Source: a virus. Taken from it: DNA of 64,000 nucleotides. The notes under the pieces are model-generated. The model did not search any database and was not told the DNA's origin. It worked only from the letters and a program-made list of their open reading frames with translations. Position numbers and translations under genes: made by a program. The DNA lies in IMG/VR virus record IMGVR_UViG_3300003322_001323, positions 1-64,000 of that record; one strand, 5' to 3'. Below are positions 9,448 to 57,865 of the stretch, one piece after another; position 1 is the first letter of the stretch; each line of letters begins with the position of its first letter.

Positions 9448-9490
9448 AAAAAGGCCCGCCGGGTTCTCCCCGAGCGGGCCTTTTCTTTTT
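9448..9490. terminator. Bidirectional intrinsic terminator
   Basis: AAAAAGGCCCGC-CGGG-ttct-CCCG-a-GCGGGCCTTTTCTTTTT between convergent gene blocks. Confidence 0.85.
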
Positions 9491-14874: not shown

Positions 14875-15294
14875 TTAAGGTGTCCAATGCTCCGGATCGG
14901 GAGCGCCGTCCATGCGCCGGCCCGTGTTAAACTCCACCTGTACGGCGCGATCGTCCCATAGTTCCGTCATGGCGAAGTCCTTGGTGGCCGTAATGGCGAG
15001 CACGCGGCCGATGTGCTGCTTGCACCAGCGCTCTATGGGCTTGCAGGCTAGGTCCAGCTCGCCGGGCGTACCCACGCGCGCGGTGAAGATGCGCACCTCC
15101 CGGCCCTCCTTAAGCCAGTTCTTTACGCGACGAATCATGGGCATGATGGGCGGTCCGATATGATTATATCCGAGCCAGATGCCGTCCCAATGCGCGAGCG
15201 TTCCATCCAGGTCCACACCAATCCACCCTCTGGATTTTGGCTTGGTGGCTCGGGTCTTGGAATGCTTGGCCGTATCAAACCGCTTGTTGGACAT
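14875..15294 (-). CDS. HAD-family phosphatase (PNK phosphatase-like)
   Basis: WIGVDLDGTLA, IFTAR, LWDDRA. Confidence 0.8.
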   Translation of the reverse strand: MSNKRFDTAKHSKTRATKPKSRGWIGVDLDGTLAHWDGIWLGYNHIGPPIMPMIRRVKNWLKEGREVRIFTARVGTPGELDLACKPIERWCKQHIGRVLAITATKDFAMTELWDDRAVQVEFNTGRRMDGAPDPEHWTP

Positions 15295-15880
15295 TCTGTT
15301 CCTTCATGATGGCAAAATAAACTTCGGCCGTGGCGCGGCAGTCCACTACCGCGCTGTGAGCGCCCTCGAAGCCGTCCGGATGCACGAAGTATTTGTAGGC
15401 TTCCTGCAGGTTCGGGGGCTTGTACTTGTCGAAGCCGGCCGCGCGCATGCGCTCGGTGGGCGGCAGCTTCATGATGGGCGTGGCGAGTTCCATGCAGCAG
15501 GTGATCTTGTCGGGACCTGGGTGCGAAGGCTGCCGGCCATAGCGATGGAAGGCGGTCCGCAGCACGGTCTCGTCGAACTTCTGGTTGAAGCCCACTACCT
15601 CGCTGGCGCGCGCTCGCAGCTGGGCAAAGACGCTCAGCGCCGTGGCCATCGGCACGCCGCACTCGCGCGCAATCTCGGTGGTGATGCCGTGAACGCGCGC
15701 CGCGCCCTCCGGTATGGTCCAGCCGTTGGGCTGGATTATGAGGTCGGCGGAGCAGACCTCCTTGCCCTCATCGGTGACGAGCAGGCAGCCCAGCTGCACC
15801 AGGTGCGGCTGCGTCGGGTGCCCCGGCGGCAGCGAGCTCTGCACTAGGCCGGTGGTTTCGGTGTCGTATACAAATATCAT
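15275..15880 (-). CDS. DEDDh 3'-5' exonuclease (DnaQ-like)
   Basis: YDTETTG, VGFNQKFD, AHSAVVD. Confidence 0.9.
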   Translation of the reverse strand: MIFVYDTETTGLVQSSLPPGHPTQPHLVQLGCLLVTDEGKEVCSADLIIQPNGWTIPEGAARVHGITTEIARECGVPMATALSVFAQLRARASEVVGFNQKFDETVLRTAFHRYGRQPSHPGPDKITCCMELATPIMKLPPTERMRAAGFDKYKPPNLQEAYKYFVHPDGFEGAHSAVVDCRATAEVYFAIMKEQNVQQAV

Positions 15881-15895
15881 GGTGAATTATCTCCG

Positions 15896-16156
15896 CTATT
15901 TCGCGTGAATTGCGGGCAGGAGGACACACGCCACCAGGTAGACGATGCCGACCCAATAAAGAAAATCGACGATGCGGACCCCCGCGTGCTCGGCCCATTT
16001 AACTCGCGGGTGCTGTCCAACCGCGCGAGAGCATATTCCATCGTGGTCGGGATGGAGCTGGCAAAAGTCTGAATGTTCTCTCATTGAGATTCCTCCTAAC
16101 AGTTTGGTGAACTCGCGGCTTTGGGTCAGATCGACGGTGTTCAATTTGCGCTCCAT
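15896..16156 (-). CDS. Hypothetical protein with C-terminal TM
   Basis: Fills the gap between neighbours; CQLHPDHDGIC motif; start uncertain. Confidence 0.45.
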   Translation of the reverse strand: MERKLNTVDLTQSREFTKLLGGISMREHSDFCQLHPDHDGICSRAVGQHPRVKWAEHAGVRIVDFLYWVGIVYLVACVLLPAIHAK

Positions 16157-16615
16157 TTATCCGGCCAGGCGCCGCAGCCAGCGCCGCTTTGGCTCTGGCC
16201 GCACCGCCTTGGCGCGAGGGCGTGACGGGCGGGACCATTCCCCGCCGTCCGTCAAACCCATGTCCATAAATCCTGCGGCCCGCAGGCTGGTGCCGGGTTC
16301 CTCCGGCAAGGTGTATGTCCAGGCTTCCCGATACCCGAGTGCCTTTGCAGCTCGGCACAGGGCGCCATAGAGACAGGAGCAGGCATTCTCCGCGCCCTCG
16401 GTCGCCACCCTCGAAATCACGATGCGCCCGCTGTCCTGCCAAACCCGCGAAGGGTTGCCGGCGACGGCCACGCCCAGCACCGCGCCGTCATCACCCAGGA
16501 CGCGAGCTGCAAAAAGACCCCCTTGCAGCTCGGGCAGGTGCCGGTGCCAAGCGCGCACGATGGCTCGCGCGGCTTTCACCGTGCAGGGCGCAATCGTGAG
16601 GCGGGACTGGCTCAA
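16157..16615 (-). CDS. XF1762-family (GNAT-like) protein
   Basis: WHRH, NACSCLYGA, TYTLPEEPGTSLRAAG, WSRPSRPR. Confidence 0.8.
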   Translation of the reverse strand: MSQSRLTIAPCTVKAARAIVRAWHRHLPELQGGLFAARVLGDDGAVLGVAVAGNPSRVWQDSGRIVISRVATEGAENACSCLYGALCRAAKALGYREAWTYTLPEEPGTSLRAAGFMDMGLTDGGEWSRPSRPRAKAVRPEPKRRWLRRLAG

Positions 16616-16627
16616 GCTATGGGCTCC

Positions 16628-16801
16628 CTAGCCTTGCTCGGCTGCATAGGTGGAAGCGGTATCCGCCACCGCCTGCCACATGATCTTGCGAAATTCTGGC
16701 GCCCAGCCGTTGCGGTCCATTTCCCGTTGAAGGGGGCGCAGCAGGTCGCTCGCCTTGAAGGCGATCCGCTCGGCCAAGATTTGTGCCTTATCGTCGCTCA
16801 A
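16628..16801 (-). CDS. Hypothetical protein
   Basis: GGAGG RBS and TTG start. Confidence 0.5.
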   Translation of the reverse strand: MSDDKAQILAERIAFKASDLLRPLQREMDRNGWAPEFRKIMWQAVADTASTYAAEQG

Positions 16802-16814
16802 TGAGCCCTCCCTT

Positions 16815-16955
16815 TCAGACGTGGATTTCAGATTTGCGAAATGACAGGCCAACCGGCCCCAGGCACAGCGTCACTTCCCACTCGGAAACGATGACGCCGA
16901 CAACCCACCAGTGCAGGTCAAAGTGCGGCTGAAATCTCCATTGCGTGATCCACAT
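16815..16955 (-). CDS. Small hydrophobic protein (46 aa)
   Basis: GAGGAG RBS at the end of repeat copy 1; MWITQWRF... Confidence 0.45.
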   Translation of the reverse strand: MWITQWRFQPHFDLHWWVVGVIVSEWEVTLCLGPVGLSFRKSEIHV

Positions 16956-16975
16956 GGTTTTGGCTCCTCAAAAGT

Positions 16976-17046
16976 TGGCGGGTGAGCAACAAGCTACGAG
17001 GACTTCCACCCCGTGCCCGGTTCTAGACCTTCGCCTGCGCTCACCC
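16976..17046 (-). ncRNA. Candidate 71-nt structured RNA ending in GCCA, copy 1
   Basis: 8-bp terminal stem GGGUGAGC/GCUCACCC plus GCCA; two internal hairpins. Confidence 0.55.
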
Positions 17047-17060
17047 ATAAAATCGCTCGA

Positions 17061-17312
17061 TTAGTTGGCGGGACGAATTGATGGCTGGTTGCCGCATTCG
17101 AACGCTTGGTTGCAGGAAATTTCATGGCCGTACATGCCGTCGCTCAGAAGAATTTGAGGCGACCCCATAGCGCAATAGTAGCAACGCTCGGCTTTGAGCT
17201 TGCACTCCGGGCATGTGCTGGACCGCTTCTGGCCAAGGTAGTGATTGCCGCAGCGGCCACACTCGCATTCATACTGATCTTCTTTGGCGAAATCTGGTAT
17301 CAGGTTGGTCAC
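17061..17312 (-). CDS. Zn-finger-like protein between the repeats
   Basis: CGRC, CPEC, CYYC; RBS supplied by repeat copy 2. Confidence 0.65.
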   Translation of the reverse strand: MTNLIPDFAKEDQYECECGRCGNHYLGQKRSSTCPECKLKAERCYYCAMGSPQILLSDGMYGHEISCNQAFECGNQPSIRPAN

Positions 17313-17332
17313 AGCAAGCCCTCCTCAAAAGT

Positions 17333-17403
17333 TGGCGGGTGAGCAACAAGCTACGAGGACTTCCACCCCGTGCCCGGTTCTAGACCTTCGCCTGCGCTCA
17401 CCC
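17333..17403 (-). ncRNA. Candidate 71-nt structured RNA ending in GCCA, copy 2
   Basis: Identical to 16976-17046. Confidence 0.55.
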
Positions 17404-17418
17404 ATAAAATCGCTCCTT

Positions 17419-17640
17419 TTAATCGTCCAATGCAGCGCCGTGCGGCTGCAAAAACCAATCTGCAAAACCGCTGACGATCCCGTAGAGCGTAAAGAGGGGC
17501 CAGCAGGTCGATACCGCGAAAATCTTCCAGCGTGGCACCTTGGTCATGCGCGAACCGCCGTCAGTGATCCAGATAACAAGATTGATGCCGCCGCCGATGT
17601 AGGCCACGAGAGCGATCCAGAACCAAGGGTCTTGTGTCAT
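17419..17640 (-). CDS. Small membrane protein
   Basis: AAGGAG RBS; two hydrophobic segments. Confidence 0.55.
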   Translation of the reverse strand: MTQDPWFWIALVAYIGGGINLVIWITDGGSRMTKVPRWKIFAVSTCWPLFTLYGIVSGFADWFLQPHGAALDD

Positions 17641-17654
17641 GTTGAGGCTCCTTT

Positions 17655-17801
17655 TTAATCCTTATCCTGCCGCGCCCAGCTCTCGCGCTGGCGCTTAATC
17701 ATGGCGGCTTTTTTCGCCGAAGTCATCTTGGCTACTCGTTTCTTGGCCGCCGCCAATAGCTTTTCCAGGTCAGGCCGAATCTTCGCTTTTGACTTCCTCA
17801 C
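17655..17801 (-). CDS. Small basic protein (48 aa)
   Basis: GTGA overlap with the polymerase stop; ...QRESWARQ. Confidence 0.45.
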   Translation of the reverse strand: MRKSKAKIRPDLEKLLAAAKKRVAKMTSAKKAAMIKRQRESWARQDKD

Positions 17802-19843
17802 GAGCAGGCTCCCCAATCCGCGCCGCGATCGCTCTCCACCAGCACCGGCACCTTGAGCTGGATGGCATTCTCCATGATCCGCGTCAGCTCCCGGCCGGCC
17901 TCGTCCGCGGCCTTGGTCTTGGCGATGGAGCTGCCGAGCTCGTCGTGGACGGTAACCAGGAACGGCCCAATTACGTCCAGGATGCCGGCCTCGTGCGCGT
18001 CCACCATGGATTTTTTCGTCAGGTCCGCGGAGGAGCCCTGCATCTTTCGGTTCATTGCCATGTAGGTGTTAACCCGCTCCACCTGGCGCACGCTGTAGCC
18101 GCGGTATTTGCGAAAGCCGCGCTGCGCCTCCTCGCTCGTGATCCAGTAATGCACGGCCTCGGCGCGATCGCGAAACACGGCTGCCGGGATTTTCCGCTGA
18201 TAGCGCACCGGCCCCCAGAAAGGAAAGCGCTGCTTGCGGCCCAGGATCGTGGTGACGTAGCCATTGCGCTGCGCCCAGTAGGCGCAGGCATCGAAGGTAT
18301 CCTTGGTGAAGGGCAGCTTCTCCTCGTACTCGCGCACAAACTCCTCCGCCTCCTCCACCGAGCATCCGAAGGTGAGCGCCAGCTTGGGCGGCTGGGCGCC
18401 ATAGCCCTTGGCGAAGTTGGTGTTCTTGACGCGCTTGCGCTTCTTCGAATCCTCCGGGTCCACGCCCAGCATCTGCGCCGTGAGCTTGTGGTAGTCGGTC
18501 TTGGGGTCGTTGCGGTAGGCGTCGCGCGCCTCCTCCGCGCCGCGACCCACGGCAAAGTGCGCGGTAAAGCGGTACTCGATCTGGCTGAAATCGTCGCGCT
18601 GCCACTCCTCCCCCTGCTCGGGTTCGAAAACGCCGCGCACCAGCGGCGCGATATTTTGATCCTCCTGCCAGTCGGACTCGCGCGCCGGAATGAATTGCAT
18701 GTTGGGATGCGAGCCGGCAAACCGGCTGAGCGAGCCGCCCTCGTCGTCCTTGCCCTGCTTGAAGGTCGGATGCACCCGGCCTTTATGCAGGTGGCCTAGA
18801 ATCTGACCGTCAATGAAGGTCGTTACCAGCGTATTGAACTTGCGGCCGTTCAAGAGCACGCGAACCAGGGGGTCGTTTTGATACTGCTCCATGAAGGGCT
18901 TGGTTATGGAGGGAGCGTTGGTTTTCTTGGTGCGCGGTACCTCAATACCCTTTTCTTCCAGCGCCCGATAGAAGCTGAGGGGCTCGGTGAGCTCGGCCTT
19001 TGGACCCGCCAGCCGCTTTAGCTCCTTGGTCCAGCGCGCCACCTCCTTGGTGAAGCGGGCGCGCAGCTTCATAACCTTGGCCTCGTTGACCGGTACGCCG
19101 CGCTGGCGCATCTTCACCAGGATCGGGATGAGCTTGCGCTCCAGCTCGTAGACCGGGAGCTGCTCGTCTGCTTCTAGCAGCGCCAGCTGCTTTTCCAGAA
19201 TTTGCAGCGGCCGTAGCGCGTCCACTTGCGCGTAGGGTCCCACCACGCCGGCGGGCATGCGATGAATGTTGCGTTTAACGGCGTCATCGCTGGCGCCGAA
19301 TCCCAGCGCGCTGGCCGCCTCGCGCAGCAGGTCCTCGTCCTTGCCGAGCCCCAGATGGGTCTGCGCCACGGCCTCCAGCGAATAGGAATCGCGCCACTCG
19401 TCCAGCAAAGGTTCAGCCACCAGCACGTCGTGGAATACCTTTACGTGGGTAAACTCCACGCCCCAGCAGGTGGAGAGGCCATCCAGGTCGTAGCCCAGCG
19501 ACGCGCCGACGAGCTCGCCCCGATACTCGCTGGCAAGCTTCTTCATGAAGCGCTGCACCAGGCCACGGTCCAGGTTGCCGCCGCCCTCGTGGTCGGTGGG
19601 CAGGTACCAGGCGCGCCCATCGTCGGTCGCCAGCGACACGCCTACGGGCTTGGCACCCCAGCGAAAGCCCGGCCCCTTCTCCTGCAGCTCCGGGTCGTGG
19701 GTCTCGGTGTCGATCCCCAGGCGCTTGACGCCGGCCAGGTTGATGGTGTTGAGGTCCGGCGCCACCCACTTGACCTCCGGCTGGAACAGGGCCATCTGGC
19801 CCATCTCCGCGGCCTGGAGGTGGCGGCGCGCGCCGGCGCTCAT
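17798..19843 (-). CDS. polA: Family A DNA polymerase with 3'-5' exonuclease domain
   Basis: Exo IDTET; motif A DFSQIEYR; motif B RKRVKNTNFAKGYG (Phe at the 762-equivalent position); motif C VHDEL. Confidence 0.95.
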   Translation of the reverse strand: MSAGARRHLQAAEMGQMALFQPEVKWVAPDLNTINLAGVKRLGIDTETHDPELQEKGPGFRWGAKPVGVSLATDDGRAWYLPTDHEGGGNLDRGLVQRFMKKLASEYRGELVGASLGYDLDGLSTCWGVEFTHVKVFHDVLVAEPLLDEWRDSYSLEAVAQTHLGLGKDEDLLREAASALGFGASDDAVKRNIHRMPAGVVGPYAQVDALRPLQILEKQLALLEADEQLPVYELERKLIPILVKMRQRGVPVNEAKVMKLRARFTKEVARWTKELKRLAGPKAELTEPLSFYRALEEKGIEVPRTKKTNAPSITKPFMEQYQNDPLVRVLLNGRKFNTLVTTFIDGQILGHLHKGRVHPTFKQGKDDEGGSLSRFAGSHPNMQFIPARESDWQEDQNIAPLVRGVFEPEQGEEWQRDDFSQIEYRFTAHFAVGRGAEEARDAYRNDPKTDYHKLTAQMLGVDPEDSKKRKRVKNTNFAKGYGAQPPKLALTFGCSVEEAEEFVREYEEKLPFTKDTFDACAYWAQRNGYVTTILGRKQRFPFWGPVRYQRKIPAAVFRDRAEAVHYWITSEEAQRGFRKYRGYSVRQVERVNTYMAMNRKMQGSSADLTKKSMVDAHEAGILDVIGPFLVTVHDELGSSIAKTKAADEAGRELTRIMENAIQLKVPVLVESDRGADWGACS

Positions 19844-19847
19844 GCTA

Positions 19848-20108
19848 TTACCGCGGGCCATTGTGATGATACCGGCAGCCCGGTTCTCCGAAATTGTGAT
19901 AACGATTTTCACCGCAAGAGGCATCGCAGTTGCAGCGCTCCGGCAATGTCCTAGAAACCTTGCTAATATAATCGCGCAAACTGCGTACCAGGTTGAAAGC
20001 CTTGCGGTGGAGCTGACGCGAGTGCCGATCGCGCGAGGCCTCGTCTACGAACTTGCGGGCGCAAAACTCGCAGGGCACGCGGCGAATGGATTTGGTGGGC
20101 TTAGGCAT
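19848..20108 (-). CDS. C2H2-like zinc-finger protein
   Basis: CEFC...HSRQLH. Confidence 0.6.
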   Translation of the reverse strand: MPKPTKSIRRVPCEFCARKFVDEASRDRHSRQLHRKAFNLVRSLRDYISKVSRTLPERCNCDASCGENRYHNFGEPGCRYHHNGPR

Positions 20109-29983: not shown

Positions 29984-30179
29984 GATTTACCTCCCGTAGA
30001 AGAACAGGAAGCCAATGCCGAGGGCCACGATCGCGCCTCCATAGACGGCAAGGGCCATGAGCTGCGGGACTAATCCCGTAATGGTATGTTCAAGCATCGT
30101 CACCTCTCCTTGGGCTCGGGTGGACCCGCGACCTCCCCTCCGGGCGATCGCGGGCCCACGCCGAACTCACCGAGCGGGG

Positions 30180-30881: not shown

Positions 30882-31013
30882 TTCATTCTCTCTCCTTGGC
30901 TCTGTTGCTACCTTAAACGTCCGCGTGGACATCTGAGGTAGCAAGCCCGGCCGGTCGGTTCGGGGCTGGGGGGCTTGTTGACCGCCGACCGGGCTCGCCT
31001 CAAGGGTCTCCCC

Positions 31014-37252: not shown

Positions 37253-37283
37253 AAACCCAGCCCATTGTTTTTATTATCAGCAA

Positions 37284-37318
37284 TGGGGTCACGGTCTCGA
37301 CAAAGCCCCGTGACCCCA
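37284..37318. promoter_or_regulatory. Intergenic hairpin
   Basis: TGGGGTCACGG...CCGTGACCCCA, 11-bp stem; no U-tract on the coding strand. Confidence 0.45.
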
Positions 37319-37336
37319 CTCTTACTCAACTAAAGG

Positions 37337-57607: not shown

Positions 57608-57865
57608 ATGGATTTGGACGCACAGCTGAAGTCGTTGAATGCTCGCGTGACGGTTCTGGAGGGGCTGGTGCAGCTCTTGCTGGGCGTGCCCGGCCTGCGC
57701 GAGGAGGCGGAGCGCGCCGCGCTGGAGCGCGCGGAGGCGGAGAAGCGCGCGCCGCAGGTGGAGCAGGGGGGTAAGGTCGAGGAGGTCGCTCCGGTCGAGG
57801 AGGTCGCTCCGGTCGAGGAGGTCGCTCCGGTCGAGGACCCCGCCAACCCGAGCGCGCAAGCCTAA
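57608..57865 (+). CDS. Hypothetical protein with VEEVAP repeats
   Basis: GGAG RBS; tandem repeat in the 3' half. Confidence 0.65.
   Translation: MDLDAQLKSLNARVTVLEGLVQLLLGVPGLREEAERAALERAEAEKRAPQVEQGGKVEEVAPVEEVAPVEEVAPVEDPANPSAQA
57775..57837 (+). repeat. 18-bp tandem repeat, 3.5 copies
   Basis: (GGTCGAGGAGGTCGCTCC)x3 plus GGTCGAGGA. Confidence 0.95.

Follow-up and report, generated by a model that had tools for sequence, protein, structure and literature searches.

A duplicated non-coding hairpin and Shine-Dalgarno repeat around a single ORFan in a phage accessory island, and its possible role at gene-cassette junctions

What is a 95-nt sequence doing twice, without a single difference, on the two sides of one small gene in a phage genome? 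The question is raised by IMG/VR virus record IMGVR_UViG_3300003322_001323, a record of 74,533 bp with direct terminal repeats, of which we examined the first 64 kb (64,000 nt, hereafter the window). A repeat search of the window revealed a direct repeat of 95 nt, 100% identical, at 16964-17058 and 17321-17415, with the minus strand as the sense strand and a start-to-start spacing of 357. In the whole record, BLAST at E<=10 and a covariance model found these two copies and no more. An exact repeat of this length cannot be explained by chance. We propose that the element is a portable non-coding intercistronic module, comprising a hairpin and a Shine-Dalgarno (SD) sequence, that was duplicated through cassette recombination, a reading to which we assign a probability of roughly one half and which is reasonably supported by context and precedent.

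An exact repeat around one gene in a variable island

The two copies, their SD sequences and the open reading frames (ORFs) that adjoin them are all on the minus strand and are arranged as follows.

17419-17640, minus strand: gene for a 73-aa hydrophobic small protein, upstream of copy A
17321-17415, minus strand: repeat copy A, 95 nt, the entire non-coding spacer from the 73-aa gene to the Zn-ribbon gene
17321-17326, minus strand: SD sequence GAGGAG at the 3' end of copy A, for the Zn-ribbon gene, read from the sequence
17061-17312, minus strand: 83-aa Cys-rich Zn-ribbon-type ORFan with CxxC pairs, bracketed by the repeats
16964-17058, minus strand: repeat copy B, 95 nt, the spacer from the Zn-ribbon gene to the 46-aa ORF
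16964-16969, minus strand: SD sequence GAGGAG at the 3' end of copy B, for the 46-aa ORF, read from the sequence
16815-16955, minus strand: 46-aa ORF, downstream of copy B

Copy A runs from 3 nt past the TAA of the 73-aa ORF to 8 nt short of the GTG of the Zn-ribbon gene, and copy B from 2 nt past the TAA of the Zn-ribbon ORF to 8 nt short of the ATG of the 46-aa ORF. Since the remaining junctions of the island measure only 12-14 nt, the element is a discrete insert of ~90 nt before an ordinary SD sequence, present at two successive junctions. In order, the module consists of an AU-rich linker, a hairpin with a 14-bp closing stem, GCCA with a U-rich linker, and the GAGGAG SD sequence. An earlier note on this DNA had described two identical copies of a minus-strand 71-nt core, each placed just ahead of a ribosome-binding site and together bracketing a single Zn-finger gene. 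All of this was confirmed: the core reads letter for letter as written there, and the identity extends over the full 95 nt. The terms "71 nt" and "CCA-ending", on the other hand, presuppose RNA ends, and the repeat itself exceeds the core by 12 nt on the 5' side and 12 nt on the 3' side.

An independent re-assembly was provided by the Logan unitigs of a root-metagenome run (X1), probably the source sample; this run contains 89% of the window's words, and no RNA run with the window was found. An X1 unitig of 387 nt spans 16970-17356 and has two identical 30-nt ends, thus forming a closed cycle of 357 nt that consists of the repeat and the Zn-ribbon gene and bridges both inner junctions, repeat to gene and gene to repeat. 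One of the two, where copy B meets the Zn-ribbon gene (17058/17059), was also bridged in another sample of that study (X2). Because the inner junctions are bridged in X1, and one of them in X2, real molecules carry the repeat on either side of the Zn-ribbon gene. The possibility raised in the earlier note that the duplication is an assembly artefact was not borne out at these inner junctions, both of which are present in the re-assembly.

The element is non-coding. Each copy contains one candidate reading frame.

17325-17405 (copy A) and 16968-17048 (copy B), minus strand: ATG-started mini-ORF of 26 codons, judged non-coding from its codon log-odds

Scored against the phage's own genes, the mini-ORF gave -0.95 bits/codon, which is typical of out-of-frame sequence, and none of the in-frame 27-codon windows of the confident genes was as low. 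The other two frames of the repeat were also negative, so that all three forward frames score as non-coding. The 46-aa ORF downstream of copy B scored +0.05 bits/codon compared to -0.47 and -0.93 in its other frames.

The element lies in a region of small genes whose limits and one mobile unit are given below.

17798-19924, minus strand: family-A DNA polymerase gene (best cultured match Dinoroseobacter phage R5C, 39%)
15881-17645, minus strand: hypervariable small-gene island holding the element, with the post-polymerase 53-aa gene on one side and the exonuclease gene on the other
16622-16811, minus strand: single-gene cassette made of a 57-aa gene, its SD sequence and the SD sequence of the next gene, common to other phages
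15275-15880, minus strand: DnaQ-like exonuclease gene, at the edge of the island

The closest relative of the phage (L007) has a DNA polymerase that is 87% identical and shows 80-84% DNA identity in the flanks of the island, with no DNA similarity over 17646-15879 of the window; at the corresponding place (8219-10010 of L007) it carries different small genes. In the island of the window the GC content is mostly lower, at ~0.52-0.60 over 16750-17800 compared to ~0.60-0.75 in the DNA polymerase gene, and the island genes have a weak codon bias. Two soil metagenome runs of other studies contain contigs in which the 16622-16811 cassette is present at 99% identity (2 mismatches), between flanks unlike those in the window. 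The joints of the cassette lie just past the upstream stop codon and within the next SD-start spacer. The recurrence of this cassette with other flanks indicates that the island exchanges single-gene cassettes among phages, with joints at translation-initiation regions. The 57-aa protein was not found in IMG/VR; its protein relatives are P0004 (98%) and P0005 (66%). The 73-aa protein upstream of copy A has one homologue (P0003, 58% identity), which was likewise not found in IMG/VR.

The gene between the copies is an ORFan, as the sole match of its protein among 5.8 billion proteins was the protein itself. It belongs to no Pfam family and gave weak matches over the Cys knuckles alone (PHROGs 8931/10481, rubrerythrin/FYVE). 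An HNH homing endonuclease was considered for this gene and rejected on the same grounds, there being no Pfam match and a similarity confined to the Cys knuckles. The earlier suggestion that the repeat could be a site at which gene cassettes recombine thus survives: the ORFan that it brackets lies in a hypervariable island, and a neighbouring cassette moves between phages.

Such a history could be simple. A circle or donor carrying the module and the Zn-ribbon ORFan would recombine with a resident module, giving the order module-ORFan-module, and the exact duplication would then be the footprint of a cassette gain via homologous recombination. The gene would be lost again if the two copies recombined with each other, so the same arrangement would also be a ready substrate for cassette loss. 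A precedent exists in T4-type phages, where recombination between two promoter-early stem-loop (PeSL) cassettes that flank an ORFan deletes or inserts it or gives mini-circles, with crossovers near the SD sequence (PMC2839356). Like the PeSLs of T4-type phages (Arbiol et al. 2010, PMC2839356; PMC4122927), the element is a short non-coding module with a stem-loop and an SD region, it flanks a single, non-essential type of ORFan in a hyperplastic region, and the module-ORFan-module logic is identical. In contrast, PeSLs contain a strong early promoter of the sigma-70 type together with a working terminator, neither of which is detectable here, and they occur many times per genome with moderate similarity, whereas the present element has two copies in 74.5 kb that are 100% identical, and dispersed multiplicity was accordingly rejected as a link to that family. 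The element also differs in its branched or rod-like 50-nt interior and its RCCA boundary, and the phage belongs to an unrelated siphovirus-like lineage, to judge from the 39% cultured match of its DNA polymerase. Because neither a sense-strand sigma-70 promoter nor an intrinsic terminator was found, the element is without what makes a PeSL a regulatory cassette, and given the four differences in promoter and terminator, copy number, identity and RCCA boundary, we regard it as PeSL-like at the DNA level and not as a member of the family.

Other types of repeat were also compared. An integron attC site, for which RYYYAAC/GTTRRRY is required, was rejected, as no GTTRRRY core was found on either strand (GTTGGCG, GTTGCTC and GTTCTAG fail); no search for an integrase was made. 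Neither type III toxin-antitoxin repeats nor a CRISPR-like mini-array nor translational bypass matches the architecture, and two long repeats are not the iterons of a replication origin.

The hairpin and its predicted role on the mRNA

Within each 95-nt copy, the part that folds is the 71-nt core.

17333-17403, minus strand: hairpin core of copy A, 71 nt, with the outer stem formed by 17390-17403 and 17337-17351 and GCCA at 17333-17336
16976-17046, minus strand: hairpin core of copy B, 71 nt, with the outer stem formed by 17033-17046 and 16980-16994 and GCCA at 16976-16979

The sense strand of the core had a minimum free energy (MFE) of -34.3 kcal/mol (z -2.79), and 2 of 200 dinucleotide shuffles were as stable. 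The antisense strand reached -24.4 kcal/mol (z -1.29). Since the antisense strand folds less well, the structure relies on G.U pairs and is a property of the sense strand, as would suit an RNA. The stem begins with the 8-bp helix GGGUGAGC/GCUCACCC, followed on its 3' side by GCCA, and is continued by GCAGGC/GCUUGU with two G.U pairs and one bulged U. The closing stem therefore has 14 bp (8-9 bp and 5-6 bp around one bulged U), with pair probabilities of 0.94-1.0; G9 pairs with U58 or U59 at ~0.5 each. When each copy was folded in its own 215-nt context, the outer stem formed with a probability of 1.0 in copy A and 0.98-1.0 in copy B. In these contexts, four of the six SD bases of copy A are more likely to be unpaired and the two central ones are mostly paired (unpaired at 0.08 and 0.13), and in copy B five of the six are mostly unpaired.

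The interior of the hairpin is ambiguous. The MFE structure of the core is a rod with internal loops, and the three-way junction drawn in the earlier note lies 1.9 kcal/mol above it. The acceptor-like stem ending in G-CCA and the stacked GCAGGC/GCUUGU helix of that drawing were reproduced with the high pair probabilities given above. Its other two parts are disfavoured, with ensemble probabilities of 0.15 for the 6-bp hairpin with a 7-nt "T-loop-like" loop and 0.02 for the small hairpin.

On a polycistronic mRNA, a hairpin of this kind is predicted to act in cis as a processing or stability element, which is the most likely role at the RNA level and which would insulate the downstream cistron, while the module would supply that cistron's translation start. 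Cleavage by RNase P is the most specific candidate for such processing. We take the element to resemble intercistronic processing or stabiliser hairpins, such as the T7 RNase III sites and REP-type elements, in that it is stable, lies between cistrons of a phage operon and precedes the next ribosome-binding site. RNase III sites require ~20 bp of near-continuous duplex and REPs are multi-copy host elements, and to our knowledge neither typically occurs as an exact pair bracketing one gene.

The window contains other hairpins between cistrons. A hairpin of ~-55 kcal/mol, stronger than that of the element, occupies the 76-nt gap at 30104-30179 on the minus strand; it begins 14 nt past the stop codon, and CCAAGGAGAGG and the start codon come straight after it. 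Its layout (stop codon, ~14 nt, hairpin, CCA, SD sequence) matches that of the element, to which it is unrelated in sequence. Two more intercistronic hairpins were seen, at 30945-31013 and 37253-37336, the former on the sense strand and likewise stronger than that of the element. We count the strong intercistronic sense-strand hairpins of this phage, for example 30104-30179, in favour of an intercistronic module. The CCA-A-SD layout at 30104-30179 was not counted as support, because NCCA follows stems at the base rate genome-wide.

Should the proposed mode of action hold, portable intercistronic elements would be sites of shuffling outside the T4-type myoviruses too, in an unrelated soil or root phage lineage that shuffles cassettes via a promoter-less hairpin and SD module. 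As it stands, the element is a single unconserved instance, and a clean, testable example of 357 bp with one ORFan and two identical flanks.

Alternatives to a portable cassette junction

Relatives of the element were sought in several collections. Exact 30-, 21- and 22-mers had no match in IMG/VR, an exact 24-mer had none in the JGI metagenomes, and 22- and 23-mers had none in the GTDB genomes. A stem-anchored gapped pattern gave two matches, both within coding sequence and neither a tRNA, which were dismissed as chance, and a transition-tolerant R/Y stem pattern gave none. Blastn against the INPHARED cultured phages returned chance matches of 24-31 nt alone, PLSDB plasmids returned no match, and blastn-short and nhmmer found nothing in 12 related loci. 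A covariance model of the element (R1) found nothing at E<0.7 in eight whole related virus records and 17 loci. As no homologue was found in the scanned collections, covariation is not assessable, and the covarying homologues by which the earlier note had proposed to judge its RNA have so far not appeared in the collections searched.

Several results weigh against a portable functional module. The element has two copies and no homologue in the scanned collections, leaving its function without backing from conservation or covariation, and the relatives show no comparable intergenic duplications. The stability of the core is modest, as its MFE places it among the best 2.1% of all 71-nt windows, or the best 1.1% once GC is corrected for, and comparable 14-bp stems arise in shuffled sequence ~5.5 times per 64 kb and are thus not rare genome-wide. 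A consensus scan found no sigma-70-type promoter on the sense strand of the element, although the sigma-70 consensus may not be the host's, and no intrinsic terminator was called at the element, where a U4 tract begins 7 nt after the stem; both signals were accordingly rejected as candidate functions. The outer junctions of the repeat were not bridged by at least 31 nt in any X1 or X2 contig, and the sequencing depth at the locus is ~3-4x. With the outer junctions unbridged at this depth, the loop may be traversed a different number of times or the population may be mixed; the re-assembly gives no independent confirmation of the outer junctions or of how many times the loop occurs.

On the plus strand, each copy contains a weak sigma-70-like sequence, TAGACC-18-TAAAAT (9/12 positions), at 17024-17053 and 17381-17410, and the count of such sequences is within shuffle expectation.

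A neutral explanation is possible, though unlikely: an ordinary long spacer would have been copied as the Zn-ribbon gene was inserted or shuffled, leaving a recent duplication scar with a functionless hairpin. It would account for the 100% identity of the copies, which points to a very recent event, for the singleton status of an element that is absent from the eight related phage records and the other scanned collections, and for a stem of a kind that chance alone would produce several times in each genome. At one given, pre-chosen locus such as this 95-nt non-coding insert, however, the chance of a comparable 14-bp stem is only ~0.4%. The fold is also strand-asymmetric and autonomous in both contexts, and ~90 extra nt are unusual in an operon so tightly packed that its other junctions span 12-14 nt. 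These three observations weigh against a scar.

A more specific role for the module, clearly unlikely on present evidence, would be that of an RNase P-type, tRNA-like punctuation mark. The host RNase P would cut at the base of the stem and separate the cistrons, and the downstream mRNA would keep a stabilising, flush 5' hairpin; a further 3' cut in the ACUUUU linker could free a CCA-ending RNA of ~71 nt. Bacterial RNase P cleaves hairpin model substrates that consist of an acceptor stem, T stem and T loop, it recognises its substrates through RCCA-P15 pairing and a ~12-bp measuring helix, with U-1 as the commonest leader base, and it also cleaves the precursors of phage M3 and C4 RNAs and operon mRNAs (PMC11143913). 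The boundary of the element reads UUUUAU followed directly by GGGUGAGC...GCUCACCC-GCCA, with A-2, U-1, a G+1:C+72 pair and a single-stranded GCCA, and so presents the hairpin-substrate determinants (G+1:C+72, U-1 and a 3' RCCA) described in that work. For this reason an RNase P signal is the one tRNA-related proposal of the earlier note that is still in play. Like the known non-tRNA substrates, which include hairpin models, C4 of phages P1/P7, M3 of phi80 and intercistronic operon sites (PMC11143913), it has a G:C-closed helix that is preceded by U-1 and followed on its 3' side by an unpaired RCCA, within a longer transcript. Its structure is specific to the sense strand, and its helical stack of 14 bp is near the length of the measuring helix.

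There are also differences. The stack has 14 bp and a bulge compared to 12 bp, the interior is either the MFE rod or the three-way junction, the T-loop or elbow is not predicted with confidence (0.15), and cleavage at this site is putative. The element has no sequence or covariance-model likeness to C4 or tRNA. The features were spotted post hoc in one sequence, and NCCA followed 6 of the 248 8-bp stems in this genome, two of the six being this element, which is the base rate and shows no enrichment. In addition, the determinants are those of published bacterial enzymes, which may differ from the RNase P of this phage's host. If RNase P does cut the element, phages would have a simple, transferable way to make acquired genes independently stable and translatable.

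Known RNA families were searched for at the same boundary. ARAGORN found zero tRNA genes in the 64-kb window, and in a 580-nt test segment it found none at -ps, at -ps80 or in -mt mode at default thresholds; calls arose only at 60% thresholds or with -mt at -ps80 and were scattered over the segment, out of register with the core. Searches of Rfam 15 at E<=10 with 5 kb and with 121 nt gave no tRNA, tmRNA (transfer-messenger RNA), YrlA, C4 or self-cleaving ribozyme match at the element, and the 121-nt search returned noise alone (microRNA and long non-coding RNA models, E 6-8, far under gathering scores). The element therefore matches none of these families, YrlA included, which the earlier note had singled out, and known ribozymes and riboswitches were rejected as candidates on the same searches.

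Punctuation and cassette movement could in principle be joined in one element, a combination that we consider quite improbable. The module would then be a tRNA-like punctuation mark for phage cassettes, at which RNase P and then a 3' nuclease cut the mRNA, with the same sequence serving as the homology patch through which cassettes move. A newly acquired ORF that came with the module would obtain its own stabilised, translatable mRNA, and a CCA-ending RNA of ~71 nt would be released. If true, bacterial viruses would have their own version of mitochondrial tRNA punctuation, combined with a shuffling element of the PeSL kind.

It is very unlikely that the pair is a mis-resolved assembly loop, with one spacer in the genome and the module and gene present as a separate circle, a tandem array or a subpopulation. 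The isolated 357-nt cycle in the Logan graph, the outer junctions that no stretch of at least 31 nt bridges and the low depth would all be expected of such a loop. Against this, the reads contain both inner junctions, the 17058/17059 junction is also seen in X2, the graph cycle demands a spacer on both flanks of the gene in real molecules, and the depth of the loop (3.2) equals that of its flanks (3.2-4.4).

A leader peptide is very improbable indeed. The ATG at the stem base opens the 26-codon mini-ORF, and its translation would melt the hairpin and couple the next gene. In copy A this ATG sits 7 nt after AAGGAG, its TGA stop lies within UUUUGAGGAG and overlaps the downstream SD sequence, and the frame contains four Arg codons in succession, three of them rare. 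The codon score nevertheless resembles that of out-of-frame sequence, and the good SD sequence of copy A is partly beyond the repeat, so that copy B offers GAG only.

The comparison with tRNAs bears on the proposal of the earlier note that the element is a tRNA mimic. As in canonical tRNAs, the tRNA-like domain of tmRNA and YrlA, there is a 5' GGG...CCC 3' closing stem, an unpaired base and CCA, and the length would be ~71 nt if the RNA were cut there. An acceptor stem of 7-8 bp with a discriminator and CCA is thus present (GGGUGAGC/GCUCACCC, then G-CCA), on the assumption that the 3' end lies at CCA. In contrast to those RNAs, the element has no cloverleaf, and no detector or covariance model recognises it. 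The note was right that this is not a canonical tRNA, as its expectation of no canonical ARAGORN hit was borne out, and that there is no anticodon arm; a D arm is absent too. Even in its three-way junction, 8 nt (one A, the 3' strand of helix 2 and a bulged U) separate the candidate T hairpin from the acceptor 3' strand, so the two are not contiguous. A free-standing mimic, in the sense of a separate 71-nt RNA that ends in CCA and is either a decoy against tRNA-targeting defences or a substrate for aminoacylation or CCA enzymes, is extremely unlikely: the 8-bp acceptor-like stem with G73-CCA and the alternative fold within 1.9 kcal/mol of the MFE, whose 6-bp hairpin has a U...A 7-nt loop, would suit it, but the ARAGORN and Rfam searches were empty, the T arm is a minority fold set apart from the acceptor strand, no homologues were found, the element lacks its own promoter and terminator and is embedded in an operon and fused directly to an SD sequence, and a decoy of anticodon nucleases is impossible because there is no anticodon arm.

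Other features of the island and the window

One further gene of the island that holds the element could be assigned to a family.

16157-16615, minus strand: gene for a 152-aa XF1762-family protein (NCBIfam NF045478, E 2e-39, above cutoff)

This protein also matches the Mom-like DNA-modification PHROG 1384 (E 9e-21). Three minor sequence features were seen elsewhere. At 9449-9484, a perfect GC-rich hairpin between A-runs and T-runs lies at a convergent gene junction and has the appearance of an intrinsic terminator for both directions. In a related phage contig (L006, 9884-10081), 15-nt tandem units encode pentapeptide repeats of the A-N-A-Y-L type. In the window itself, three tandem 18-nt units (GGTCGAGGAGGTCGCTCC) lie at 57757-57828, within a coding region of the structural module.

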